Shown here piece by piece: positions 12,189 to 31,221 of a stretch of DNA of 43,276 nt. The position numbers and the translations under genes are program-made. Position 1 is the stretch's first letter. Every line of letters starts with the position of its first letter. The DNA comes from a virus (Duplodnaviria > Caudoviricetes), in the IMG/VR virus record IMGVR_UViG_3300008255_000206, positions 1 through 43,276 of that record; one strand, written 5' to 3'. Under the pieces are notes generated by a model. That model ran no database searches, was not told the origin of the DNA, and was given only the letters and a program-made list of their open reading frames with translations.

Positions 12189-13376
12189 TCATTTCGGCAC
12201 CGCCTTAGCTAAAGGCCGATAAACATATCCGCCTTTTTCTAGCTGCTTTTTAATCAGCTGCCCCCGTTCCATCATCTCAATCGTAGTGTTGATTTGATGG
12301 ACGGGGATACGCTCTTGTAAGAACTGAACTAGTCGGGGTTCAGCGATCGGCTTATTCTCTTTCATGTAAATTGTGTAGAGGTAATGCCATGCTTCCTCGA
12401 TGTTCCGACCAGCGCCGCCGGACGACATGGACTTGAAGATATCCGGCATAAAGAACTCAGCCTCGATCAGGGTGTCAAGCGCCTGCTGGAAATCAGCAAC
12501 GGTTATCTCGTAGCGAAGGTCCATTGCGGCATAGATCATGCAAAGCTTGAGCAAGTGGACTAGTCGCCGTCCGTTGTAATACATCAGCTTGGGATGATCT
12601 GGGGTCGGAACCCCTCCACCGAAGTGCCAGTTCTTGATGAGGATTTTCACCTCTTCCTGGAAGAACATCTGGCCATACATGTTGCCGATCTTTTGCAGCT
12701 TCTTCTTCAACGCGCCGAACCGCTTGGTGTCACCTTCCTCGTCTTCATCTTGAAAGGGGTCTTTGAGTTGTTTGTCGGCTGTGAATACGATGATTGTGCG
12801 AGAGGTGAAGCCCTGATCCCAAGCGCCCTCTGGAAGGAAAGAGTTGAGGTAGGACGGAGTACAGGCGGTGAACATATTGATTTGCGGGTTTTCGATTTCG
12901 ATCTCAAGCTTATTTGTCCGGCGCTTCTCTCCGTAAGCCTTGCAATCGTAAAGGTCAGTCAGTGCGTTCATCATCGCCTTGTCATATTCGGGTAGAAAGT
13001 TACCAAGCTCATTGACGCAGAGGGTCAATGAGTTATAGGTGATTACGTTCTGTTTGTCCTGGGGACGAACTATCTTCTTTTCGCAGTCAGCGAGCTCGTC
13101 AACTAGTGAGGCTTTAGTGACAGAAGTAGGCGCGAGGTGCTGTTCTTCAACACTCGCAAGTAGGTCGCGGACACGCCAAGTGACCTCTGTTTTGCCAACC
13201 GCTGGTGGAGCGCATAGAATGATGTAGAGGTTAGGAAACAGGTTAGACCCGTTGGTGCGAACCCACACCTTGCGCTCCAACGCTGCGCCGACGGAGAAGA
13301 TCGCGCCCCATTTTCGGAAAAGCTCTGGTGAAGCGATGTGCTTTGTGGCATCTAGAAAATCCCCGATCCATGTCAT
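12189..13376 (-). CDS. AAA+ ATPase, DUF3987/MCM-like putative replicative helicase
   Basis: Walker A APPAVGKT, Walker B LCVNE, sensor FTACTP, Arg finger GFTSR, probable C-terminal winged helix; 4-bp overlap with the polymerase gene. Confidence 0.7.
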   Translation of the reverse strand: MTWIGDFLDATKHIASPELFRKWGAIFSVGAALERKVWVRTNGSNLFPNLYIILCAPPAVGKTEVTWRVRDLLASVEEQHLAPTSVTKASLVDELADCEKKIVRPQDKQNVITYNSLTLCVNELGNFLPEYDKAMMNALTDLYDCKAYGEKRRTNKLEIEIENPQINMFTACTPSYLNSFLPEGAWDQGFTSRTIIVFTADKQLKDPFQDEDEEGDTKRFGALKKKLQKIGNMYGQMFFQEEVKILIKNWHFGGGVPTPDHPKLMYYNGRRLVHLLKLCMIYAAMDLRYEITVADFQQALDTLIEAEFFMPDIFKSMSSGGAGRNIEEAWHYLYTIYMKENKPIAEPRLVQFLQERIPVHQINTTIEMMERGQLIKKQLEKGGYVYRPLAKAVPK

Positions 13377-14983
13377 AGATAGTCCTTGAAGCGCCGTATT
13401 GGGGCAGGACGATTACGCTCGTCCGCTTTGCCTTTCCATTTTACAAGGCCATACGGATTTACGTTGGGGTTATCGTAGTCATACTTCCCCCAATTCCATC
13501 CGATCTGTGCCTCGAGCGGAACGTGGAACATTCGACCGCCTTTAAGCTCTTTGTTGACTTGCATTACATTGAGGATTTCGGGGATAAGATCAGCGTGTTC
13601 AGAGTAGGGGATTTGGAAGAGGATGGAGTCATGAACTTGAAGGAGCGGTTGAACTACGGTAGAGGGGAAGTGGCGATATACTTGAAGCAGACCCCGGTCG
13701 ATTTCCTCACCGGTAGAGGATTGTGGATCGTAGGCGATGGCAGCTCGCCAAGTAGAAGCGTCATTGCCTCGTCCAAAGAAGTGACGGCGACGGCCGAAGA
13801 GGTTGTAGAGAACTCCAGTCTCTTCGATTTTATTGATGACCCAAGCGTGCCAAGCCGGAATGGCCGGGAACTCCTCGAAGTAGTTATCTTGGAACGCCTT
13901 GACAAGGATGGTGGGGATGTGAGTCTGGGCTGCCATGTTTGGCGGCTTGCCGAAGTAGTTTGTGCCGTGACCTAGTTTCTTGGCCGACTGACGATAACTG
14001 TCTTGCCGATGAAACATGATCCCGTCGCAGAATTTCTTCCACTCGGCGGGGTCTTCGGGCCAAGCGAGGTTGGGCCAGCACATACGGCTGACGGTTGTGT
14101 GCAGATCGCCGCCTTCGCAAGCGTCCAGATAGTGCCCGGCAAACTCAGGGCCAACGGCTCCGGTCCAAGACTTTTTGCCAAGAAGCCTTGCGATATCTTT
14201 GGCGTCATAGTCATAGAACGTCTCCCAAAGCCTGGCACCGACGTTGCGGGCGTCAGCTTGCTCGAGGTCAATGTTGAGAAAGATCATGCCGGGATCAGCT
14301 TCGAAAGGCTCACGCAATGACCGATCGACGTTTTGCAGATTGGTGCCGGAACCGAAGTCTGAATAGGCCGAAGACAGTCGACCGGTGTTTGTTCCTGCGA
14401 TGTTGTAGCCCGTGCGGATGCGGCTGTCCTCGTCAATCTGGGTGCGTAAGAAGCCAAGAGACTTACTGATCCCCCGCATGATAAGGATCATATTGCAGAA
14501 CGGCAGAGCAAAGAGGTGGACCTTGAGTTTCTCCAAGGCCTCCTCATTTACTGTTGCTGCAAAAATTCCATTTGAGTTTCGTTTCTTGATTTCTTTGAAA
14601 CCGAGGCAGGTGTAGAACAAGGACTTGATCTGCATCGGCGAGGCCGGGTTGAAAGGGCCATCAAACAACTCGGTGCAGAGATAATCGAACTTCTCTCGCA
14701 CCTCGTTGTAGGTTTCAGTCAGCTCTTTGATTTTCTTGTCGCGGACTTCCTTGTTGATGTATACGCCGTGAAGCTCCATCTCCATGTAAGGAGCAAGCTT
14801 GTCGAGCGCCGTCGCATAAGTCTCTTGGACTTCGGGATCGGAGTTGATCTCCTCTTGCAAGACGTTGTAGATTTCTGCGGTTACGCAGCAGTCAAGGCCA
14901 TTGTAAATCCATGACGCCTGATTGGCGGTCAAGGTTTTCATCATGGCCTCGTCGAGAAAGGCGGTGTCGAATACGTCAGCCAT
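13373..14983 (-). CDS. polA: Family A DNA polymerase, polymerase subunit (carries ExoIII only)
   Basis: TGRLSS, NLQN, motif A DLEQADAR, motif B RQSAKKLGHGTNYFG, motif C VHDS; N-terminal YNGLD. Start placed at MADVF. Confidence 0.93.
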   Translation of the reverse strand: MADVFDTAFLDEAMMKTLTANQASWIYNGLDCCVTAEIYNVLQEEINSDPEVQETYATALDKLAPYMEMELHGVYINKEVRDKKIKELTETYNEVREKFDYLCTELFDGPFNPASPMQIKSLFYTCLGFKEIKKRNSNGIFAATVNEEALEKLKVHLFALPFCNMILIMRGISKSLGFLRTQIDEDSRIRTGYNIAGTNTGRLSSAYSDFGSGTNLQNVDRSLREPFEADPGMIFLNIDLEQADARNVGARLWETFYDYDAKDIARLLGKKSWTGAVGPEFAGHYLDACEGGDLHTTVSRMCWPNLAWPEDPAEWKKFCDGIMFHRQDSYRQSAKKLGHGTNYFGKPPNMAAQTHIPTILVKAFQDNYFEEFPAIPAWHAWVINKIEETGVLYNLFGRRRHFFGRGNDASTWRAAIAYDPQSSTGEEIDRGLLQVYRHFPSTVVQPLLQVHDSILFQIPYSEHADLIPEILNVMQVNKELKGGRMFHVPLEAQIGWNWGKYDYDNPNVNPYGLVKWKGKADERNRPAPIRRFKDYL

Positions 14984-15323
14984 TAGCGATAGACTCTGTA
15001 TGAGGAGCATACAAAAAGACCGGGATAGAGGCTATTTTTGCGAACTCTATTTCGCCGGCTACACCTTTCGACTCCCGCCAACCATCGAGAATGAGAACAT
15101 AGATGGACTCGGCTAAAGCCAACATGTGATGATTGTAGTTGGCCCAAAAGTTGTAGTCAGTTGGCATCTCATATCTGTGAGCAAGCCAATGACAGTGAAC
15201 GATTGGACTGTAAATCATTTCTCCCTTTTGTAGGAGTTTGGCCGTAGCCCGTTCGGCAGCCATATAGCGTTGCTGCCTGATGTTAGAGTCTGGGTGAGAG
15301 TAGGGGGATGCGAGATAGATCAT
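14976..15323 (-). CDS. DUF1937 / nucleoside 2-deoxyribosyltransferase-like protein
   Basis: IYLASPYS...SPIVH...GWRESKGVAGEIEFA signature. Confidence 0.8.
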   Translation of the reverse strand: MIYLASPYSHPDSNIRQQRYMAAERATAKLLQKGEMIYSPIVHCHWLAHRYEMPTDYNFWANYNHHMLALAESIYVLILDGWRESKGVAGEIEFAKIASIPVFLYAPHTESIANG

Positions 15324-15987: not shown

Positions 15988-17025
15988 TCAGTCTTCCTTC
16001 TTCAACGTGCTGTGGTCGTTGCGCATGAATTTCCAGCTGGGCTCGTTAGTGTAGATCGAGCCCAAGAAACCGAGAGACTTTTCAAGCTCGGGCTGCAGTG
16101 AGTGGTGCTGGAGCATTGTGTCGCCAAGAAACTTGGGGCATGGTATTCCCATCCGCTTCCAGAAATATTTCATGTCATAGGAAAAGTTTTGACCGATCAT
16201 CGGGAACTCGGTGTTTATGCGGCGAACCCAGGCCCAGGCGGCTCGTTCCTGTTCGAGGGTTGGCCAGAAATTTCCACTGCTTTTCTCGCGATCGTAGAAA
16301 GGCAGGACGATAGCACGAGAGCCGTCTGCAGTGGAGTAACCCACTTCTGTGATATCAAGTCCAATGGTCTCAATGTCGCAAGACAAGAACGGCTGACCAA
16401 CAAGAAACTCATGGTAGAAGTCCTCGATATCCTGTAGATCGGGGTTCATGTAGATGAGGTGCGACGGACGGCGAAGCTCGGGAAAGAGGCATTCGCGCCG
16501 GGTTTTGCTGACGTCAGCTAGGACGATCGGGCGCAGGCCATACTGTCGCATGACAGAGTTGGGGTGCCATGTGGGGATGACCTTGCGGACAAGGCGATCG
16601 CCACCAATCTCAGTCGAAAGATCGAAGGTCTCGAGCGGAGACCCTCGATACTTTTTGATCCCCTGCTTTTTGCACAAAGCCCAAAGCGCGACGTTGCCCA
16701 TTGCAAGGATCACATTGGGCTGTCGGTTACGGATCTCGGTGTAGAGTCGATGCAGTTCGTGCTGGAAATCAACTCGAACATACTGATCGGGCTTGGTAAA
16801 CAAGGGACGATAGTTGGGGATTGCGGTTGCCTTGGGTCCACAAAAATTTTCCAAACGTCCACCTGCGGGAAAACGATTGAAGACGTTTGTGAGATAGCAG
16901 TCGGACTCAGCAATCCCAGCCTGACGGAGTAGACTACGTAACATCCCCCCTGCTGTGCCGGAAAAGGGGGCACTTCGCTGTTCGTCTTGCTCGCTCCACG
17001 CTTCGCCTACGATCATTATGGACAT
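15988..17025 (-). CDS. UDG family-4-like domain fused to the N-terminal part of a 3'-5' exonuclease (second polymerase subunit)
   Basis: IVGEA..PFSGTAG, YLTNV and TWHP UDG motifs, then ExoI CDIET, ExoII QNFSYD and DTML. Start placed at MSIMIVGEA. Confidence 0.85.
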   Translation of the reverse strand: MSIMIVGEAWSEQDEQRSAPFSGTAGGMLRSLLRQAGIAESDCYLTNVFNRFPAGGRLENFCGPKATAIPNYRPLFTKPDQYVRVDFQHELHRLYTEIRNRQPNVILAMGNVALWALCKKQGIKKYRGSPLETFDLSTEIGGDRLVRKVIPTWHPNSVMRQYGLRPIVLADVSKTRRECLFPELRRPSHLIYMNPDLQDIEDFYHEFLVGQPFLSCDIETIGLDITEVGYSTADGSRAIVLPFYDREKSSGNFWPTLEQERAAWAWVRRINTEFPMIGQNFSYDMKYFWKRMGIPCPKFLGDTMLQHHSLQPELEKSLGFLGSIYTNEPSWKFMRNDHSTLKKED

Positions 17026-17032
17026 GGTATGG

Positions 17033-17356
17033 TCATTCCGCTTCTCGAACAGACCATACAGCCTGTGTTGCAGATGGTTTGCCGTAGCGGTAACGGGCGA
17101 CGCCGGGGCAACAGGCTTGGTTAGCAAAGCACCGAATGAAGGACGGACAGCTCCAAAAGCCATCATTGCGAGGATCATCAGAGCTTATAAAGCTATCGCT
17201 TTCAAAGGTGACTTCAGTTTTCCCCACAGTAAACATCATCTTGCCTTTGGGTTTTTTCAAGCAATCAACCATCTCACATTCAACAACTATGCCGGGCTTT
17301 AGAATAGAGCCGGGAAAACCTGAGTGATCATGATTGTGCCAGTCAGACCAGATCAT
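17033..17356 (-). CDS. Hypothetical protein
   Basis: ATGA-coupled to the methyltransferase gene. Confidence 0.55.
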   Translation of the reverse strand: MIWSDWHNHDHSGFPGSILKPGIVVECEMVDCLKKPKGKMMFTVGKTEVTFESDSFISSDDPRNDGFWSCPSFIRCFANQACCPGVARYRYGKPSATQAVWSVREAE

Positions 17357-18636
17357 AGGTTGAGGTTCCTTTTTGCTTCGGCGACGTATTCAGGGTTGAG
17401 TTCCAATCCGGCGGAAATTTTCGCACCAAGTTCTTCGGCAACTCGAACCGCCATCCCGCCGCCACAGGTGGGATCAAGCATACGTGTGCTGTCATCGACA
17501 AGCATACGCAGGAAGTGAGTGAGCATACCGTGAGGCTTCTCGCTCATGTGATATTCTTTTGTAGTGCTGCCCGAATAGCTGTTGTTGACCGCTCGCACAA
17601 TGGGCCGATCGCCCCGAGTGCAGAAAAAAGCAGTTTCATAAGTGCGGCGAGGGCCTCGGTTGTGGTCAGGCAACATGCCCAGGCCATCGCTGCGATGCCA
17701 GATGAGCGGGAACGGGTCGACTTTCCAGCCACCGAGGTTTTGTAGAATGTCGCGGGTCTCGCCGTAGTAATTCATCGAGAACCAAAAAACCATGTGCGCG
17801 GATGAGGCGACAAAGTTGTCCTGTTCTTGCACGAAGGTGTGCAGAAGTTTCCAATAAACATCTGGTGCGTCATCGTATCCGCCGAGGTTCTTGGCTGCCG
17901 ATTGACCAGACTTGGTTGCGAGAATGCCGTAAGGAAAATCGCAATGAATGAGGTTGTAGGCCGGAGCATGGGGCTTCTTTGCCCACTCGAGGAAGTTGGC
18001 CTGAACAATGTAAGCTCGGCGATCGGGCTCTTCTTTTTCTTCCTGCTTCTTCGGGACGATCGGGGCAGCGATATCGGCGACTGCCTTGACGATATCGTGT
18101 TTCTCGCTCATGCGCTGGCGCTCGATTTTCCGGCGAGCAAAGTTGAGGGCGTTTGTGTAGGTTGGGGCCTTGGCGACTTCCGGCACGTTTTCATCTCGCA
18201 TTCGCTTGATGATAAGCGCATCGCTGATGGAGGCTTTGGCCGCACCGAGGGACTCAGCCGTCCTTGTCATGTTCCATTGAGGATTGATGGACAAAGACAG
18301 CTGATGAAAGCTGACGATTGCGTCGTTCTGCTCTTGCCACGTGAGGTCACGACGCTTGACGTTTTCTTCCAACTCGATAAGTTGAAGCTGCGTCGGATCA
18401 AGCTCGTCAGAGAACTGAACGGTGATGTTGTCGAAGCCCAGATGTTTGTGTGCGCGAAGCCGACGTTCTCCGGCGATCAGGATAAGTCCCTCACGCTGCA
18501 CGACAATGGGATGGATCAGACCCCGTTGGCGGATGGACTCTGCCAGTGACTCGATATCAGAGAAGTCTTTTCGCTGCCGCTCGTCGGGAACGGTTATGGA
18601 ATTGACAGGGATTACGGCGAAGTTTCCGCTAGTCAT
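17353..18636 (-). CDS. ParB-like N-terminal domain fused to an N6/N4 DNA methyltransferase (beta order)
   Basis: LIAGERRLRA and EEN..R ParB motifs, an HTH, catalytic DFPY, H-x-x-EKP, SAM motif LDPTCGGG and GLELNPEY. Confidence 0.85.
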   Translation of the reverse strand: MTSGNFAVIPVNSITVPDERQRKDFSDIESLAESIRQRGLIHPIVVQREGLILIAGERRLRAHKHLGFDNITVQFSDELDPTQLQLIELEENVKRRDLTWQEQNDAIVSFHQLSLSINPQWNMTRTAESLGAAKASISDALIIKRMRDENVPEVAKAPTYTNALNFARRKIERQRMSEKHDIVKAVADIAAPIVPKKQEEKEEPDRRAYIVQANFLEWAKKPHAPAYNLIHCDFPYGILATKSGQSAAKNLGGYDDAPDVYWKLLHTFVQEQDNFVASSAHMVFWFSMNYYGETRDILQNLGGWKVDPFPLIWHRSDGLGMLPDHNRGPRRTYETAFFCTRGDRPIVRAVNNSYSGSTTKEYHMSEKPHGMLTHFLRMLVDDSTRMLDPTCGGGMAVRVAEELGAKISAGLELNPEYVAEAKRNLNL

Positions 18637-18762: not shown

Positions 18763-19233
18763 TCATGCCTCAGGAGCCGTTGCGCCCAGGTTGTCATACA
18801 TGACTTCCGGGTTTTCCTTGTCCGGCCGCAGGGTCAGTTCGCCCAGAAACCGACAGCCCTGTGCGTTTGCGAGCAGTTCGCTGACGGTGGAGGTTTCGGG
18901 CTGGCCGAGTGCAACACAGGCAAACTGCTTGAAGCGATACATACCTTTCTCGTAGGCAACCTTGTCGACCGCCCCGTCAGAAACGAAGAAGGTCTTGCGC
19001 AGCTGAACCTTGGTCACGTCGCCATAGGCGGACAGCTCGTCCGGGTCAACGTCATCGGTCGGGCTGACACACTGGCATACGAAGTCGATGCGATCGCCCT
19101 CGTTGCCGTCCTGGTCCTTGAAGGTCGTGACCTCGGGATGTTTGATGACCTGCCAGATATAGTGGCCGATAGGCATGTTCGATGGCCGCTTGATTTCTTC
19201 TGCTGCACGATCGAGCGCGTCAGTAAAACGCAT
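18763..19233 (-). CDS. Putative single-stranded DNA-binding protein (DUF669-like)
   Basis: P-x-G-x-Y start and OB-fold-like strands; lies in the Sak4/exonuclease module; AAGGAG RBS. Confidence 0.6.
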   Translation of the reverse strand: MRFTDALDRAAEEIKRPSNMPIGHYIWQVIKHPEVTTFKDQDGNEGDRIDFVCQCVSPTDDVDPDELSAYGDVTKVQLRKTFFVSDGAVDKVAYEKGMYRFKQFACVALGQPETSTVSELLANAQGCRFLGELTLRPDKENPEVMYDNLGATAPEA

Positions 19234-19616: not shown

Positions 19617-20399
19617 TTATTTCTCCTTCAGTTTTGCGAAGATTGTTGCAAGCCCTGTTTCGAGCGGATACTCTGCATCAATCCGCATCGGGGCAGGGTT
19701 TTTTAGATCGACCATGCCTGTTGGCATAGTTTTGATCTTACGCTTGACGTTAGCACCGGTGCCGGAAGACTCGGCGAGCAACAGAGTGTTGAAGTTGCGG
19801 GGAATTTTCGGACCGAGTGCCTTGCCGATCGCGGAGGCATAGTGCTTAACCGTGCCGTCCTTGTTCTCGGTAATCTCGATGTGTGAGATGATGATGACGT
19901 TGGTTTTAAAAAACTCCCCGGTGACGTTCATCAGCAGGTCGTCGATGAGTGACTGCGCAACAGAATACCACTGGCGCGGGTCTTTGACAGTGGGGTTCAT
20001 ATGTTTGGCCCAGCGGAAAGCGGCCTGGCCGAGGTTGGTCAGAGAGTCGATGACCAAGATGACGTTCGGACCCCAGGATGCGGGGTCTGAACCGTCGTCC
20101 CATTTCTCCAGCGCGGTCAGGGTGTTGGCATAGGCTTTCGGCGCGCCGACGCTGACTGTGCCTGTTGGCGAGCTTTTCATCTTGTCGCGGAAAGACTGGT
20201 ATTGGACCTTGGACAGGTCAAGACGCTGTTCCTTGGCGTGGTTAACCAGCGCGTCCAAGCCGCTGTCCAGGTCGATGATGCGCAACTCGTATCCGGCGGC
20301 AAGCAGAGAGACAAGGGCTCCCGTTTTGCCGGTGCCAGAAGCGCCGATGAACATGAGTTTGACAAACTCAGAAGAAGTGTGTTCGGTGAGGGATGGCAT
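19617..20399 (-). CDS. AAA_24 / Sak4-like RecA-fold ATPase
   Basis: GASGTGKT, IIDLDSG, LVIDSLT and IISH motifs. Confidence 0.8.
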   Translation of the reverse strand: MPSLTEHTSSEFVKLMFIGASGTGKTGALVSLLAAGYELRIIDLDSGLDALVNHAKEQRLDLSKVQYQSFRDKMKSSPTGTVSVGAPKAYANTLTALEKWDDGSDPASWGPNVILVIDSLTNLGQAAFRWAKHMNPTVKDPRQWYSVAQSLIDDLLMNVTGEFFKTNVIIISHIEITENKDGTVKHYASAIGKALGPKIPRNFNTLLLAESSGTGANVKRKIKTMPTGMVDLKNPAPMRIDAEYPLETGLATIFAKLKEK

Positions 20400-20590
20400 C
20401 AGATTTTCCGTTCGGCTTGGAGGGCTTTAACCAAACGGTCAAGATCCGGGAGGAGGGAAGCAGCGAGCTCGACTGTTTCTTCAGTCGCCGTTTCGAGGTG
20501 AGCAATAGCGTAGACCGCAGCTTGCGCGCCCTTTGCCCGACGAATGGCAAAGTTGTGCATCTGGGTTTTTTGCAACAGAGGGGTTTGCAT
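20399..20590 (-). CDS. Hypothetical protein
   Basis: TGATG stop-start coupling on both sides; start MQTPLL. Confidence 0.55.
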   Translation of the reverse strand: MQTPLLQKTQMHNFAIRRAKGAQAAVYAIAHLETATEETVELAASLLPDLDRLVKALQAERKI

Positions 20591-21510
20591 CAGCGTGCCT
20601 CCAGGGGATCCCAATTGTGTTCAGTGTAGTCTGCCTTGATGAAATTTTCCCGCACATGCTGAGGGCGAGAACAAACTCGACGGAAAGGGCAACCGCCGTA
20701 GTTGCCGCAGCTCGAGGCGTTCATCGGGAACTTTTCCATCTCGGTTGCATGGCGAGCGAGGTTGATGGTCCACAAGGCTGACTCATGCCATTCGGCAATC
20801 TGTGACTCGGTGCGGGTTGTGACGCCTCGTCCGAACTCGGTAAAGTTGATCGCGATTTGAGCTGCGTCGATGATGACGCCGTGAACCGGGGACTTGAGGA
20901 TGACCTTACCGGCCCAAGCGTAGCCGGTCATCTGGTTCGACGGATTGAACTGATCGAAGAAGTAAGGCCCGATGGTTGAGCCCGTGGTTTTCTGGTCAAC
21001 CACGTAGAGCTTGCCGCCGAAATCGCTAACGCGATCGAGATGGCCGCAATAAAGAATGTCCTCGGAGAGTTCGAGATTGAATGACAGTTCAACCGCCGGG
21101 GTTCCGTCTGCGAGGTGATATGTGGTCAGGCCGTCCTCGGTTTCTTCGCCGTATTGCTCGAGATACCAGACAATAGTGCGGATGAGGTTCGGGCGGGTTT
21201 TGGCCGCGTGATCGAAGGTCATGGGGTAGCCACCAGCGGGCGACTCATCACGGACCCACGAGTTGATCAGAGCGGTGTGGACAACTGAGCGCATGGCGTC
21301 CTCGTGTGATGCACCAGCGGCTTTGTGCTTGTAGTAACCTTCCAGGGCGGATGCGTAAAGCCCGCCAAACAGAAGATGGACGTTTTGCTGCCGAGGCTGG
21401 ATGCCTCGGATCATTGTGTAGTAGTATTTGCGAAGGCAGGTTTGAGCAAGCTCAAGGGAGGTTGCATCCCAAGCAAACTGAACGCCGTCGCGGAAAGAGC
21501 GCTTTTCCAT
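20590..21510 (-). CDS. PD-(D/E)XK Cas4/AddB-like exonuclease with probable 4Fe-4S cluster
   Basis: N-terminal C-x-R, GHLDR, VVDQKT, Q-x-x-x-Y and C-terminal C..YGGCPFRRVC. Confidence 0.85.
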   Translation of the reverse strand: MEKRSFRDGVQFAWDATSLELAQTCLRKYYYTMIRGIQPRQQNVHLLFGGLYASALEGYYKHKAAGASHEDAMRSVVHTALINSWVRDESPAGGYPMTFDHAAKTRPNLIRTIVWYLEQYGEETEDGLTTYHLADGTPAVELSFNLELSEDILYCGHLDRVSDFGGKLYVVDQKTTGSTIGPYFFDQFNPSNQMTGYAWAGKVILKSPVHGVIIDAAQIAINFTEFGRGVTTRTESQIAEWHESALWTINLARHATEMEKFPMNASSCGNYGGCPFRRVCSRPQHVRENFIKADYTEHNWDPLEAR

Positions 21511-21701
21511 CAGATATCCAACTCGATGTTCAGCCCGCTAACGGCCTTTTGGGCTGCGGTCAGGGTTTTCGTAGCCTTAACGGCGGCCGGGTTGGATTTG
21601 TAGGCTGCCCGACGTTCCCTCATGTGAGCGATGATCGCGTCGAGATCCTCTTTAGTCATTTTAAGGGGGTCTTTCATGAACAGGTCGGTGACTTGGCTCA
21701 T
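21510..21701 (-). CDS. Hypothetical protein
   Basis: Coupled to both neighbours; GAGG RBS. Confidence 0.65.
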   Translation of the reverse strand: MSQVTDLFMKDPLKMTKEDLDAIIAHMRERRAAYKSNPAAVKATKTLTAAQKAVSGLNIELDI

Positions 21702-21886
21702 AGTTCTACCTCAACTTTTATGTCGGCGGTTTCGCTTTCGGTCGACTTTAACCGATCAACGTAGGCTGAAATGATGGTGCGGATTACAGTCGAGACGCTG
21801 CGACCGGATGCGGAGTAGACCGACTCGAGGTAATCCCAATCACCCTCCCGAAGGTTCAGGGTGTGTTTCTTCAGATCCTCTTTCAT
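21698..21886 (-). CDS. Ribbon-helix-helix DNA-binding protein
   Basis: KHTLNL strand, a helix, then GRSVSTVIRTII second helix, as in CopG/Arc. Confidence 0.65.
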   Translation of the reverse strand: MKEDLKKHTLNLREGDWDYLESVYSASGRSVSTVIRTIISAYVDRLKSTESETADIKVEVEL

Positions 21887-22091
21887 TGGATTTCCTGATG
21901 ATGAACAGGTGGGTGTCGGGCCGGGCTGGGTCTGGCTTCAAGATGAGGTTTGCCAGATCGGGGTCAACTTTCCGCTCAGCGTAGAGGCGCTGTTGCAGAC
22001 GCCCAACGTCATTGGTCTCGACAAGGACACCGATACGAGCGTTGAGCGCCGCATAGAGAAGCTCAAGCAAAGGGAGCTTAGGCTTCGACAT
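21840..22091 (-). CDS. Hypothetical protein
   Basis: GAGG RBS; overlaps both neighbours. Confidence 0.55.
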   Translation of the reverse strand: MSKPKLPLLELLYAALNARIGVLVETNDVGRLQQRLYAERKVDPDLANLILKPDPARPDTHLFIIRKSNERGSEETHPEPSGG

Positions 22092-22425
22092 GGACCTCGA
22101 CCAGCTCCTCGGTTTTCTCGACGGGACGGAAAGTCACCAGCGGGACGATGTTCAGCTTCTCCTGCTGGGTGCCGGAAACGATGCAGGAAAACTCGACGCC
22201 ATCATCAATGTGAGGGGCGATGAAGGCAGCTTGACCGCGTTCGACATAGCCCATGTGCTGGAAGTTGTAGAGGATTTTGATGGCCGAGGGATCATACTGG
22301 TTCTCGGGCTCACGCTCGTAGAAGATCTCGTCTCCTGGCTGGCAAGCCTCGGCCCAGGCTTTGGCGTGAGGGCCGCGAAAATGCATTCCGACGACTCGGA
22401 CATTCGGAAAGGTTGGTATGCGCAT
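22078..22425 (-). CDS. HIRAN domain protein
   Basis: VVGMHFR...EREPENQYDPSAIKI...MGYV signature; AGGAG RBS before the ATG at 22425. Confidence 0.85.
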   Translation of the reverse strand: MRIPTFPNVRVVGMHFRGPHAKAWAEACQPGDEIFYEREPENQYDPSAIKILYNFQHMGYVERGQAAFIAPHIDDGVEFSCIVSGTQQEKLNIVPLVTFRPVEKTEELVEVHVEA

Positions 22426-22440
22426 TGTTAACTCCTGTTT

Positions 22441-22486
22441 AAAAAGCGCCTGCCGAGTGGAGGATGCTGTGTCCACTCGGCAAGCG
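22441..22486 (-). terminator. Rho-independent terminator
   Basis: About 15-bp stem (core TGCCGAGTGGA/TCCACTCGGCA) followed by U5 on the minus strand. Confidence 0.75.
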
Positions 22487-22515: not shown

Positions 22516-23025
22516 TCAGCCGATTTCGATCGAAGCGAGCTTTTCCTTCTGCTTCAGGTTCGCCTTGGCGACGCGAACGATTTCCTCGTTCTCGGCCACC
22601 TGAGCGATAAGCTCGGCGTATTGCTCGTCGGCGTTGTCGCCCTTCGACTCTTTCCAGGCCTTGATGGTGAGGCCTTTGTCCTTGATCTTGCCGTTGACGT
22701 AATCGCGAGCCAGGCGGGTGCATTCGGCCTCGAGCGGCGTCTGCGACTTGCGGCCGGCGCTGACGTTGTGCAGAGTGAAAACGTATTCGGCGTCCTTGGC
22801 CGTCACGAGTTCCTGAGCCTTGGTCTTGATCTCGTCAGTCGGGGCCTCGACACCGGCGTCCTTCATCAGCTTGGTGATGGCTGCGCGCACGTTGTTGCCG
22901 ATGTTTTCAGCGCGAACCTGGTTCAGCGCCTTGGCTTCGGCTTCGTTGAGCGTGTGGCCCGGCGCGTAGGGCTGGTTGACGGTGACTTCAACGCCTTGAA
23001 CGGTGATCTGCTTTTCGTTTGCCAT
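22516..23025 (-). CDS. Hypothetical helical protein, probably highly expressed
   Basis: Has its own promoter, AGGAG RBS and terminator; strong codon bias. Confidence 0.8.
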   Translation of the reverse strand: MANEKQITVQGVEVTVNQPYAPGHTLNEAEAKALNQVRAENIGNNVRAAITKLMKDAGVEAPTDEIKTKAQELVTAKDAEYVFTLHNVSAGRKSQTPLEAECTRLARDYVNGKIKDKGLTIKAWKESKGDNADEQYAELIAQVAENEEIVRVAKANLKQKEKLASIEIG

Positions 23026-23137: not shown

Positions 23138-23533
23138 TCAACTCGGTTCGAGCGGCGGAAGCGTGGCGAGCCCTGCGTTGGCTTCTGCTGCGGTGATGAC
23201 CTTTCGGGCAGGCTGGTAGCGGGCGAACTTGTCGATCCTTTGAGGGACAGAAGCTGGTGGCGGAAAGGAGGGTTCGTAGGTATACACATCTCGGTAAAAA
23301 CCCTCCTCGACACTTCTTTTAACGCTTTCATAAACTTCTTGAAAGGTCAAAGACCTCGCCCTCGGAATTGGGAATGCCTCGGATGTAGCTGTGGGGGCTC
23401 CCCAATCAACCTGAAAGTAACGACTAGAGTCGCCCGATAGCATTTTCAGCCTTTCTTCCACCAGCTTTTTCCAGCGGTCTTGCTCTTCCTTACTCGACAA
23501 GGGAGTCGTCCTCGAAGCTGTCACTGGAGACAT
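23138..23533 (-). CDS. Hypothetical protein (start uncertain)
   Basis: Fills the gap after the helicase on the coding strand. Confidence 0.4.
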   Translation of the reverse strand: MSPVTASRTTPLSSKEEQDRWKKLVEERLKMLSGDSSRYFQVDWGAPTATSEAFPIPRARSLTFQEVYESVKRSVEEGFYRDVYTYEPSFPPPASVPQRIDKFARYQPARKVITAAEANAGLATLPPLEPS

Positions 23534-24959
23534 AGGCCAGATACTTTTTGGCTCGCGTCTCGATAACATACTTGAGGTTCGCGTCTTGCTCATGGTCTTT
23601 CACCCTGCAGAGATGTTGATTGAGGAACCACACACGATCAAACTCGAGGCCTTTGGACTTGTGACCAGTCATCAGGTGGATACGACCATCACGAGACATG
23701 AGGTGTTCGAGGTAGGCGATGGCGTCGCCGATGGTAGCGGTTTGCTCGAAGATGACCTTGATGCAAGCTGCCGTGTCGTGGACCTTGCCCTCAGCGCCAT
23801 CGCGAGCTTTGGAAAGCTGTTTTTCTTTCCACTTGGCGAGCTCGGCGATGGCTTCCTTGGTCGGGGTCTTGGTCGAGCCGAGCTTGTTCATGATCTTGCT
23901 CAGCGGCTTGACCATATCACGGCCCGAGATTTCGGGAAGCAGGCCGACCTTGATCAGTCGAATTGCCATCGAAAACAGCGGAGCGTTGTTGCGGCAGATG
24001 ATCGCATCGCCTTGCTGGAGCTCCTCTGGCCGCCAGACAACGGGACGGTGAACCTCGCCGTCAATTTGCCAGTCGGGAGACTGCAGGTCGGGTGCTCGCC
24101 AAGTCGCGTTGGCGGCGATGTTCTTGCCGCAGCGGAAGGTGACAGTCAGGCGCAGCTCTTCCATGTCGAACATCTGAATGAGGTTCGGCAGGGATTTCGT
24201 GTCGGCGCCTCGGAAACCATAGATCGCTTGGAAGGGGTCGCCGACAGCGATGATGCGGTTGCGCTTGACGATCTTGCGCAAGACCAGGTGGTTGAGGGCC
24301 GACAGATCTTGAGCCTCGTCGACCATAAGCAGCTGTGTGGTCGGCCAACTGACCGGCGACAGAGCAGGGCAATAGATCATATCGTCGAAGTCCAACGTGC
24401 CCTTGAGGGCTTGCTGGAAGGAGATGATCAGTGCGGCTTGGACGAGCTCGCGCTGGAGCTCGGAAGGTTCCATCGGAAGGCTGAAGAAAAAGTCCTCGTC
24501 AGAGTCGATGGATTTGTAGGGCGTGCCTTTGCGGAATTGCTCGGGCAGATAGCCGCCGGCTTTTGCTTGCCGAATGATATCGAGAGTATCGGCAAGCTCT
24601 TCAAAGGCGATGGTTTTTTCTTCGGGGTCTTTCAGCTCGCCGATGAGCGATTTGACGATCTCGAACATCTTGCGATCGGCGATGTTGGTCTTGCAGCGGA
24701 TGAAATTGCGCCAAGCTGCGAAGCCGATGGAGTGCAAGGTTTTGGCCTCACAGTTCTTTGGCAGTCGTTCGGCCATTTCGACTGCGATGGCCTTGTTGAA
24801 AGCCAGGCAGAGGATCTGAACGCGGGGCAAAGCCTCGGCGATCATGACCAGTGTAGAGGTTTTGGCGGCACCAGCGCGAGCGACGACTGCGAGATTGGCG
24901 GCGCTGTTTTGCGCCGCCTCGATGATTGCCTGCTGTTCAGGTGTGGGGGTATGGGTCAT
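23490..24959 (-). CDS. UvrD/Rep-like SF1 helicase
   Basis: PTPEQ, ARAGAAKT, LAFNK, TLHS, VDEAQD, VGDPFQAIYGFRGA, TGHKSKGLEF and YVIETRAK. Confidence 0.92.
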   Translation of the reverse strand: MTHTPTPEQQAIIEAAQNSAANLAVVARAGAAKTSTLVMIAEALPRVQILCLAFNKAIAVEMAERLPKNCEAKTLHSIGFAAWRNFIRCKTNIADRKMFEIVKSLIGELKDPEEKTIAFEELADTLDIIRQAKAGGYLPEQFRKGTPYKSIDSDEDFFFSLPMEPSELQRELVQAALIISFQQALKGTLDFDDMIYCPALSPVSWPTTQLLMVDEAQDLSALNHLVLRKIVKRNRIIAVGDPFQAIYGFRGADTKSLPNLIQMFDMEELRLTVTFRCGKNIAANATWRAPDLQSPDWQIDGEVHRPVVWRPEELQQGDAIICRNNAPLFSMAIRLIKVGLLPEISGRDMVKPLSKIMNKLGSTKTPTKEAIAELAKWKEKQLSKARDGAEGKVHDTAACIKVIFEQTATIGDAIAYLEHLMSRDGRIHLMTGHKSKGLEFDRVWFLNQHLCRVKDHEQDANLKYVIETRAKKYLAYVSSDSFEDDSLVE

Positions 24960-25216
24960 TTTGCGGACTCCGCAAGCATGGCGTCGGCGATGAGGAAGGT
25001 CGTTTTTGCGACAGCTTCCCAAAAGTCTTTTAAAGCTTCTTCCGGTGTTTTGCCCGGAAGCACTTCAAGGGGGTCGTCGTGCATAGTAGCGCAAATGCCT
25101 GCCAGCGCTTGACCGGCATACCACTGACGAAGGGACATGCCGGGGTGAGGAGATGAGTTGGTGTTTTCCGGGTAAGGAAAAGCAGCGTGACCATCGGAAC
25201 CATCAGTGCGCAGCAT
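24956..25216 (-). CDS. Conserved phage hypothetical protein
   Basis: AFP...GMSLRQWYAGQAL...IADAML pattern, common in phage early genes. Confidence 0.75.
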   Translation of the reverse strand: MLRTDGSDGHAAFPYPENTNSSPHPGMSLRQWYAGQALAGICATMHDDPLEVLPGKTPEEALKDFWEAVAKTTFLIADAMLAESAK

Positions 25217-28219: not shown

Positions 28220-28597
28220 TCAGTCAAACAGATCATCATCAACGGTCTTAGGCACCACGTCGATTTCGTTACCGTCCTTGTCGGTGACTTTGAAATCCCC
28301 GATCTCGTAGCGATCGAACCGCAACCAACGACTGGTGCGCTTGCCGGGCTCCAGATTGTGATGGCGAATGACGAGCACATCATAGGCTGTGACGGCGGCT
28401 CGGCCCGGAACGAGGGCAGTGACTTCTTCGTTCAGGGCCCTGACGATGTTGCGATACCGATAACATCGCTGACGAAAGTTGATCGCCGCCCCGACTGTCG
28501 GAAACGTGACAATCATGCCTGGGTTATCGAGGGCCTTGTTCATGACCTGCTCGCAATCTTGATATGCGGCAGGCGATTTGTTATAACCTCGGGGCAT
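28220..28597 (-). CDS. Hypothetical protein
   Basis: Start MPRGYN, TGATG-coupled to the upstream ORF. Confidence 0.7.
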   Translation of the reverse strand: MPRGYNKSPAAYQDCEQVMNKALDNPGMIVTFPTVGAAINFRQRCYRYRNIVRALNEEVTALVPGRAAVTAYDVLVIRHHNLEPGKRTSRWLRFDRYEIGDFKVTDKDGNEIDVVPKTVDDDLFD

Positions 28598-28797
28598 CAG
28601 CTGAGCTCCGCCGGGTTGTGAACATACGGCTTGCCGTCTTTTTCGATCAACAGCGTTGTCACGTTCCACGGGTGAACCTTGCGGCGGGTGAGTTTCTGAA
28701 ACTTGGCGATGGCCAGCCGATGACCGTCGAAGGAGGTTTCTGCTTCCGTTTCGACTGTTTCTTTCGAACCGGTGTAGAAGCTGCGATATTTGTTCAT
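28597..28797 (-). CDS. Hypothetical protein
   Basis: GGAG RBS; coupled to neighbours. Confidence 0.65.
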   Translation of the reverse strand: MNKYRSFYTGSKETVETEAETSFDGHRLAIAKFQKLTRRKVHPWNVTTLLIEKDGKPYVHNPAELS

Positions 28798-30325: not shown

Positions 30326-30630
30326 TCCGGTGTGCGGGTGTATGCGTCTGACACTCGTCGCTATGGTGGGGGATTGGCTAAATCGGACCGTTTTTCAATG
30401 TGCCGTTGTCACGGGTGCCGTTGGACCATATCGCCTCATATGTATGTGAGGGGGTGAGGGTGTTCCTAGAATGTTCCAAAAAAAAAAAAATTTATAAACT
30501 CATAAAAAACAACAACTCCGAGGTGGTATGGTTCATACACCGCGCGAACGGACCATATCGGAAACCGGGTCAATTTAGCCAATCCCCCACAATACACGCA
30601 ACTCTCAGGCGCATACGCCAACACACCGGA
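30326..30630. repeat. Long imperfect inverted repeat flanking an A13 tract (candidate origin)
   Basis: Arms 30326-30383 and 30573-30630; perfect 18-bp core GTGGGGGATTGGCTAAAT; internal direct repeat GGACCATATCG. Confidence 0.8.
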
Positions 30631-30660: not shown

Positions 30661-31221
30661 TCAGAGCTTGATATCAATCGCCATTGCCGCAAGCTCGGCT
30701 GCCGCTTTGGCTTCCGCCTCGAGTATGGTCTCGGCTTTGCGCACAATGGAGGCTTTCCAGCCGTCGTCCTGCTTGCCAAAGATCTCCCAAACAGCCGCGT
30801 CGCGTTCGCTCGGGGACATGTCTTTGTAACCTTCGACGTGGGGCTTGATCTGGTCGCGAACGATCGAGATGACCTTCTTGTCAACGGTCGAAAGCCCGAG
30901 CCCGCCGTTGCCGCGCTCTGCGCCCCAATCACCGGCTGCGAGTTGATCCGCAACCTTCTGCATCAGAGCCTCGCCGGTTTCCGCCACTTTCGGCCCGTTG
31001 GCGGCGATCCATTCCCGACGCTCAGCCGCCGTCAGGTTCTTCCATCCGTCATCGTTGCCGTATGCGACCTGTGCCGCACCAGCCGCCGCGTCGGCGATCT
31101 TTTGCTTCAGCCCGTGCAACGTGGCTTGCCTGATGATCTCGGGCGACAACGCCGAGGGAGTGATCGTGACGCTTTTGCCGCGCGACTCGACAACAAAAGT
31201 ATTGGTGAAGTTGATTTGCAT
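30661..31221 (-). CDS. First early gene, hypothetical helical protein
   Basis: GGAG RBS before MQINFT; strong codon bias; followed by a terminator-like hairpin. Confidence 0.8.
   Translation of the reverse strand: MQINFTNTFVVESRGKSVTITPSALSPEIIRQATLHGLKQKIADAAAGAAQVAYGNDDGWKNLTAAERREWIAANGPKVAETGEALMQKVADQLAAGDWGAERGNGGLGLSTVDKKVISIVRDQIKPHVEGYKDMSPSERDAAVWEIFGKQDDGWKASIVRKAETILEAEAKAAAELAAMAIDIKL

Follow-up and report, generated by a model that had tools for sequence, protein, structure and literature searches.

A podovirus replication module with a split family A DNA polymerase, an MCM-like helicase, and no recognisable primase

The replication arm of the window (the whole 43,276-nucleotide stretch of viral DNA analysed here) encodes a family A DNA polymerase (PolA) and, immediately after it, a DUF3987 helicase without a primase domain. 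With a His at the F762 position of the polymerase, this is a module of the 119X/PaP2 type. The module belongs to a widespread podovirus family with 119X/PaP2, Kuura, Mel-JY34, and many uncultured relatives, and profile searches of their sequences indicate that the lack of a recognisable primase is real and family-wide, so that some non-standard priming route is needed. Polymerase-encoding DNA viruses nearly always have a primase. Phage 119X is one of very few unexplained exceptions: a 2016 survey named it as a phage that encodes a polymerase but no primase and suggested non-canonical priming (PMC4889955). We extend this exception to a large family. New in this analysis are the split of the polymerase within its exonuclease and a candidate origin, consisting of a conserved inverted repeat that encloses a T13 tract. 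The explanation we prefer, with about an even chance of being right, is that the phage supplies helicase, polymerase, and a protein that binds single-stranded DNA (SSB), and that the host or recombination, not a polymerase with an Asp steric gate, provides the primers. Because the family has members in culture, a minimal set of genes in common, a candidate origin, and natural pairs with Glu and Asp, three or four purified proteins would allow the priming question to be tested directly.

The helicase, its genomic setting, and the search for a primase

The helicase gene (12189..13376, minus strand; 395 aa; PF13148, E = 5e-12) overlaps the polymerase stop by 4 nt and encodes a DUF3987/SF6 (MCM-like) AAA+ protein with a C-terminal winged helix. 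In the AF2 model (pLDDT 93.7), for which MCM proteins are the top structural matches, residues 1-312 correspond to the MCM AAA+ domain (Z 19.9, rmsd 3.3, 269 residues aligned to MCM7) and residues 320-390 form the winged helix, leaving no room for a primase domain. This modelled combination of an MCM-type AAA+ domain and a C-terminal winged helix points to an SF6/DUF3987 helicase and agrees with the initial annotation, which had described an overlapping MCM-like ATPase without a primase domain. Residues G61, K62, E123, R193, R270, and R271, which we take to be those of Walker A/B, the Arg finger, and sensor 2, are invariant in 106 homologues. Helicase and PolA are inseparable in the family: all 345 helicase-bearing loci, a count that contains duplicates between collections, carry PolA, including 122 found with helicase queries. 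Helicase ORFs exceed 500 aa at only two of the 345 loci, once through an internal insert and once through a C-terminal tail. The “DNA primase” label that PHROG attaches to the window ATPase was rejected, as the profiles matched only in their helicase half; phrog_3022 (788 columns) matches 49 of 55 genomes, and every match listed starts at column 341 at least.

The plus strand of the window contig, whose estimated completeness is 92%, carries podovirus genes for head and tail, and its minus strand carries the replication arm, running from ~31,200 to 12,189. Its identity to PaP2 and Kuura is only 30-35%, and it has BPP-1-like head genes. The same replication arm is joined to differing sets of virion genes in relatives (G001, G003, and G004 vs. 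G002 and G009), and therefore the module moves between morphogenesis types. Recorded hosts of the family are very diverse and include Caulobacter, Pseudomonas, Vibrio, Polaromonas, and Microcystis. For Shea, a relative of PaP2, terminally redundant ends and possible episomal persistence have been described (PMC13348215).

No Pfam primase family was found among the 65 ORFs of the window, a check that the initial annotation had called for, nor among 29 further or homologous ORFs or, for 17 relatives, in 143 ORFs representing 159 variable ones. On the genome level, 31-77 genomes were searched with six Pfam primase models, each with a control that gave a match. Six-frame searches yielded no match for Prim-Pol (31 and 55 genomes), Toprim_2 (32 and 55 genomes), DNA_primase_S and PriCT_2 (32 genomes each), or DUF3854 (77 genomes, with phiAsp2 as positive control), and Toprim_3 gave a single sub-threshold match with an internal stop in one of 32 genomes. 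A search with PF16793 had no control match and thus carries no weight. For the 55-genome set, 12 of the 61 loci first chosen were left out, 11 of them for size; it comprises 35 genomes with Glu and 17 with Asp at the steric gate of the polymerase and three with this residue unread, and a primase match occurred in none of them. The earlier statement that no TOPRIM or AEP primase is recognisable therefore extends from the window to up to 77 related genomes, as judged by HMM searches of the window and its relatives. The initial annotation had also named the missing genome segment as a place where a primase might lie. This is unlikely, since both contig ends fall within genes for internal virion proteins, two genes that adjoin each other in relatives (G002, G005, G008, G009, and G010), and by this gene order the DNA missing from the window is very likely the remainder of those two genes. 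Profile searches likewise found no primase in five circularly complete relatives of the Asp clade.

A highly diverged phage primase might still hide among the conserved hypothetical ORFs (22516-23025, 28220-28669, 30661-31221, or smaller ones), but we consider this quite improbable. Phage primases can evade common models, as illustrated by the phiAsp2 enzyme, which is seen only by DUF3854, and ORF 22516-23025 has no usable ESM Atlas match. Against this, the conserved family-less ORFs all stay below ~190 aa, their alignments show no acidic DxD/DxE pattern of the primase kind, the candidates are absent from the PaP2-like group by BLAST, and DUF3854 itself gave no match in 77 genomes. A fourth conserved small ORF without a family lies at 21510-22091, and the stretch 21698-21886, judged by eye, presumably resembles a ribbon-helix-helix protein.

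Sugar pocket and split exonuclease of the polymerase

The polymerase gene (13373..15010, minus strand, likely start 14983; PF00476, E = 3e-34) encodes a subunit consisting of the ExoIII helix and the polymerase domain. Its AF2 model (pLDDT 90) has a plain Klenow-type fold without an added template-gripping domain and is matched by Foldseek to KlenTaq and Bst (E = 1e-19 to KlenTaq). Together with this fold, motifs A, B, and C and the catalytic Asp residues identify a family A DNA polymerase; D248, K344, and D461 are invariant in the homologue alignment. The steric-gate (E710) position is occupied by Asp253 (codon GAC, 14252..14254, minus strand) within DLEQADAR, which falls on motif A of Taq and Klenow in a profile alignment. 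This Asp, already recognised in the initial annotation, is present in 119 of the 119 closest homologues (the best 120 of 2638 matches, self removed), which rules out a sequencing error, and in 41 of 150 wider representatives. Two points had been missed by that first reading: the ExoI/II half resides in a separate gene (see below), and the F762 position in motif B3 is a His (His348, 13967..13969, minus strand; KlenTaq motif B alignment), as in 119/119 of the closest homologues and 149/150 representatives. The HDS of motif C, which had been singled out as a departure from HDE, is indeed present at residues 460-462, with Ser after the motif C Asp in 119/119, but it is no special feature, as the T5-like TS3 has VHDS and the Gordonia phage Tolls VHDA. 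On independent pairs, Asp and HDS did not covary significantly (median p 0.25).

Across the 150 representatives, taken at 50% identity, the gate residue is Glu in 109 and Asp in 41. The first scans used Asp-containing patterns and were thus biased to Asp. Among loci derived from the PaP2 helicase, 69 of 77 readable ones have Glu and eight Asp; the 77 derived from Kuura-like polymerases have 73 Glu and four Asp, and those derived from the Mel-JY34 helicase have Asp at all 35 readable loci out of 44. Trees yield nine gate changes on 243 rows and eight on 54 rows and place the Asp clade of the window within a set of Glu lineages, indicating that Asp arose repeatedly on a Glu background, about 8-9 times. 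A single Asp clade was rejected (p-AU 1.75e-36) in a test of 20 against 29 rows that omitted five long ones.

This distribution bears on the central proposal of the initial annotation, that this polymerase may prime itself or incorporate rNTPs. In the version in which the Asp gate admits rNTPs and lets the polymerase make RNA or mixed primers, we regard it as very improbable. Asp is fixed in a large subclade of 72 tree rows, and Gly mutants at the steric gate let Taq and Pol theta insert rNTPs (PMC4215692, PMC6158600). However, Glu-gate relatives are equally primase-less, Asp toggles among close relatives (of two sister tips, L012 has Glu and L283 Asp), and the phiAsp2 PolA combines Asp and His with a primase of its own. 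Moreover, sugar tolerance gives no de novo initiation, and the staphylococcal CCPol is reported to prime with an intact gate (PMC7581432). Because the Glu-gate relatives lack a primase as well, the Asp gate, by its distribution in the alignments, does not track primase loss and appears to be a side feature and no marker of self-priming.

The Asp is best read as a tolerated substitute for Glu in a sugar pocket that His762 has already reshaped. Patel and Loeb are said to have found in 2000 that Taq Glu615Asp takes up more rNTPs. The same mutant is described as remaining active (PMC4215692). The literature we searched contained no paper on a natural PolA with His762 or an Asp gate. Whatever the priming route, PolAs with His762 and Asp710 are natural variants of the sugar-selection pocket and interesting for polymerase engineering. 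Several relatives (P0010, P0011, P0026, L064, L311, and others) have inserts of ~300 aa, probably inteins, in polymerase motif B, and a further one lies in the P-loop region of the helicase. L009 (vir526), a record with an archaeal host assignment, also has this PolA-helicase pair, there with Glu and Phe.

Judged from its motifs, PolA is bipartite, split inside the exonuclease, with ExoI/II carried by a separate gene. The N-terminus of the polymerase subunit retains the ExoIII motif YxxxD (residues 36-40, 14891..14905, minus strand; Y36 and D40 invariant). A second gene (15988..17178, minus strand, likely start about 17028; PF03167, E = 5e-16) joins a UDG-family domain to the ExoI/ExoII half, and its DxE and NxxxD are conserved in 17/17 sequences. 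The two products match adjoining parts of the profile phrog_17 (columns 472-788 for UDG-exo, 809-1256 for Pol), and the halves are fused in Mel-JY34 and vir526. In the window, 1 kb containing four small genes separates the two, and the ~500-aa polymerases form a large clade that holds the window and Kuura. We infer that both halves reassemble into a proofreading replicase. The family-4 UDG residues are largely kept (GE 17/17, F 16/17, N 14/17, H 15/17), with the motif A Pro mostly replaced by Trp. A DUF1937 nucleoside 2-deoxyribosyltransferase-like gene (14976-15323) precedes the polymerase in 16/28 genomes and, together with the UDG domain, may hint at nucleotide handling. A short ORF at 15589-15819 matches phrog_3715.

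A candidate origin and routes to a primer

The replication arm further encodes a predicted DUF669-like (N4-type) SSB (18763..19233, minus strand; ESM Atlas TM 0.61-0.63 to DUF669 clusters), found by BLAST in 18/28 genomes; DUF669 has been linked to the N4 SSB (PMC4889955). Recombination genes are core in the family, with a PD-(D/E)XK exonuclease (20590..21510, minus strand; PF12705, E = 9e-16) in 26/28 and a Sak4-like annealing ATPase (19617..20399, minus strand; phrog_124, E = 1e-13) in 21/28 genomes. A UvrD/Dda-like SF1 helicase (23490..25022, minus strand; PF00580) is present in 18/28 and an N6/N4 DNA methylase with a fused ParB-N domain (17353-18636) in 22/28 genomes, and a stand-alone HIRAN domain gene lies at 22078-22476.

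The strongest inverted repeat of the window is non-coding (30326..30630; 77-nt arms at 30326-30402 and 30554-30630, 75% complementary) and scores 29.5, the top of 567 window positions with a median of 8. Between its arms, a repeat scan found a T13 tract (30478-30490) whose T strand is that of the replication genes; of 300 simulations, two produced a run at least as long. On this strand, a T run of 11-23 nt at most 3 kb from the small terminase gene is present in 14/18 Asp-clade genomes and, with matching strand and place, in 6/7 Kuura-like Glu genomes. Mel-JY34-like genomes have T9 in 2/5 cases, and the tract was found in none of seven PaP2-like genomes. The inverted repeats flanking the T run exceed the control maximum in 8 of 14 cases, are absent in four, and are cut by the contig end in two. 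Several relatives' contigs break at this site. Iterons near the T tract are not proposed, as a hexamer repeat is enriched in some genomes, but inconsistently. From its sequence features, the inverted repeat with T13 is a candidate origin or genome-end signal. Because the T tract of Kuura and a 606-nt terminal repeat are separated by about 60 nt, the tract may be a packaging signal and not an origin.

In the explanation we prefer, the helicase would use its winged helix to load itself where the inverted repeat and the T tract lie, and would open the T tract there. Behind it, together with the DUF669 SSB, would work a proofreading replicase reassembled from both halves of the polymerase. On SSB-coated DNA, host DnaG or RNA polymerase would provide the starts, and later on strand invasion by Sak4 and the exonuclease would do so. 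The N-terminal domain of DnaB recruits DnaG, and the model of the window helicase has no DnaB-type N-terminal domain, which would speak against the DnaG route. The host diversity of the family likewise favours a host-independent route over host priming, and the position of the polymerase gene is a further counter-point to priming by the host or recombination. Of viruses with a polymerase of their own, 98% are reported to encode a primase as well, and a primase is usually fused to DUF3987 helicases or located directly upstream of them (PMC4889955); in the window, this slot is occupied by PolA.

The gene order leads to a second, more doubtful reading, that the His762-type PolA of the whole family, with Glu or Asp, is itself the primase and initiates de novo on single-stranded DNA held by the helicase or the DUF669 SSB, like CCPol-MP. 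It would account for PolA filling the primase slot and for the near-universal His762, it has family A precedents in CCPol-MP and a virophage PolA-like domain, and it accords with the non-canonical priming proposed for 119X in the 2016 survey. However, phiAsp2 has His762 and yet a fused primase, the proofreading motifs are intact whereas CCPol lost most of its exonuclease, and the family shares no MP-like small protein besides the SSB. Taken further, and just as tentatively, His762-type PolAs could form a new class of self-priming replicases that start chains at the T-tract origin while the helicase or the SSB grips the template, a host-independent replisome of three proteins. If so, the Asp gate would tune sugar choice in some lineages.

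The recombination genes and the inverted repeat also allow for replication without primers, by strand displacement on both strands from nicks, fold-back, or invaded 3' ends at the inverted repeat, with Sak4 annealing the displaced strands. The conserved inverted repeat near the genome ends, the core exonuclease/Sak4/SSB module, and the GC skew at fourfold-degenerate sites, which in 14 pooled genomes switches sign where the T tract lies and shifts gradually over the genome length, are consistent with such a mode. Nevertheless, we consider it unlikely: no nicking initiator was identified, the repeat arms are merely 75% complementary, and the skew is confounded by codon usage, with a sign that fits no simple displacement model. 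The sign change runs opposite to the usual convention for bacterial origins, and the strand skew of these genomes revealed no clear replication mode.

Comparison with known systems

The CCPol-MP-Cch2 system of SCCmec, cited in the initial annotation as a precedent, resembles the window in that a family A polymerase cut within the exonuclease stands beside a helicase without a classical primase. It differs at the gate: CCPol is reported to keep E710/F762 (E174/F225), to prime with dNTPs only, and to require MP (PMC7581432). The window has Asp and His at these positions and, between polymerase and helicase, which overlap, no gene for a small beta-barrel cofactor of the MP type; such a cofactor might be encoded elsewhere. 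In addition, the partner of CCPol is Cch2 and not the MCM-like Cch, whereas that of the window polymerase is MCM-like, and CCPol has lost most of the exonuclease (three helices kept) without a complementary gene, whereas the window has ExoI/II with conserved residues at 15988-17178.

The self-loading MCM-like helicases Cch and SaPIbov1 Rep share the MCM-type AAA+ domain and the C-terminal winged helix with the window helicase (Z 10.4, rmsd 9.5, 298 residues aligned to Cch 5dgk; Z 8.5 to 8tch), and the inverted-repeat, AT-rich character of their origins is similar to the window element. Unlike them, the window helicase has no N-terminal domain, and its candidate origin lies 17 kb from the helicase gene and not just downstream of it. 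AgaPH, a DUF3987 protein, is reported to unwind 5' to 3' and to bind its primase-polymerase (PMC11724360).

The UDG-PolAs of N4-like, SPO1-like, and SP15-like phages (the last described in PMC13697223) and the split T7-like PolAs provide parallels for a family-4 UDG joined to the exonuclease and for a two-gene exo/pol arrangement (PMC10201439, PMC13697223), but in the accessible part of PMC10201439 the B3 residue of UDG-PolAs is given as Phe, Tyr, or Leu and never as the His seen in the window, and PaP2 does not appear there. Pas55 of the Actinoplanes phage phiAsp2 has both Asp at the gate and His at 762. In contrast to the window polymerase, it is fused to a primase, with a DUF3854 TOPRIM-type domain at its N-terminus, and a helicase, has HDE in motif C, and forms a long separate branch.

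Finally, the Pseudomonas phages 119X, PaP2, PaMx41, and Shea (Jamesmcgillvirus, Fredfastierviridae), the Caulobacter phage Kuura, and the Microcystis phage Mel-JY34 have the same order as the window, PolA with a DUF3987 helicase of ~400 aa directly after it, and the 119X/PaP2 group, Kuura, and Mel-JY34 also share His at 762, HDS, and the lack of a detected primase. PaP2 and Kuura differ from the window in having Glu at the gate, and PaP2 and Mel-JY34 in having an unsplit polymerase.
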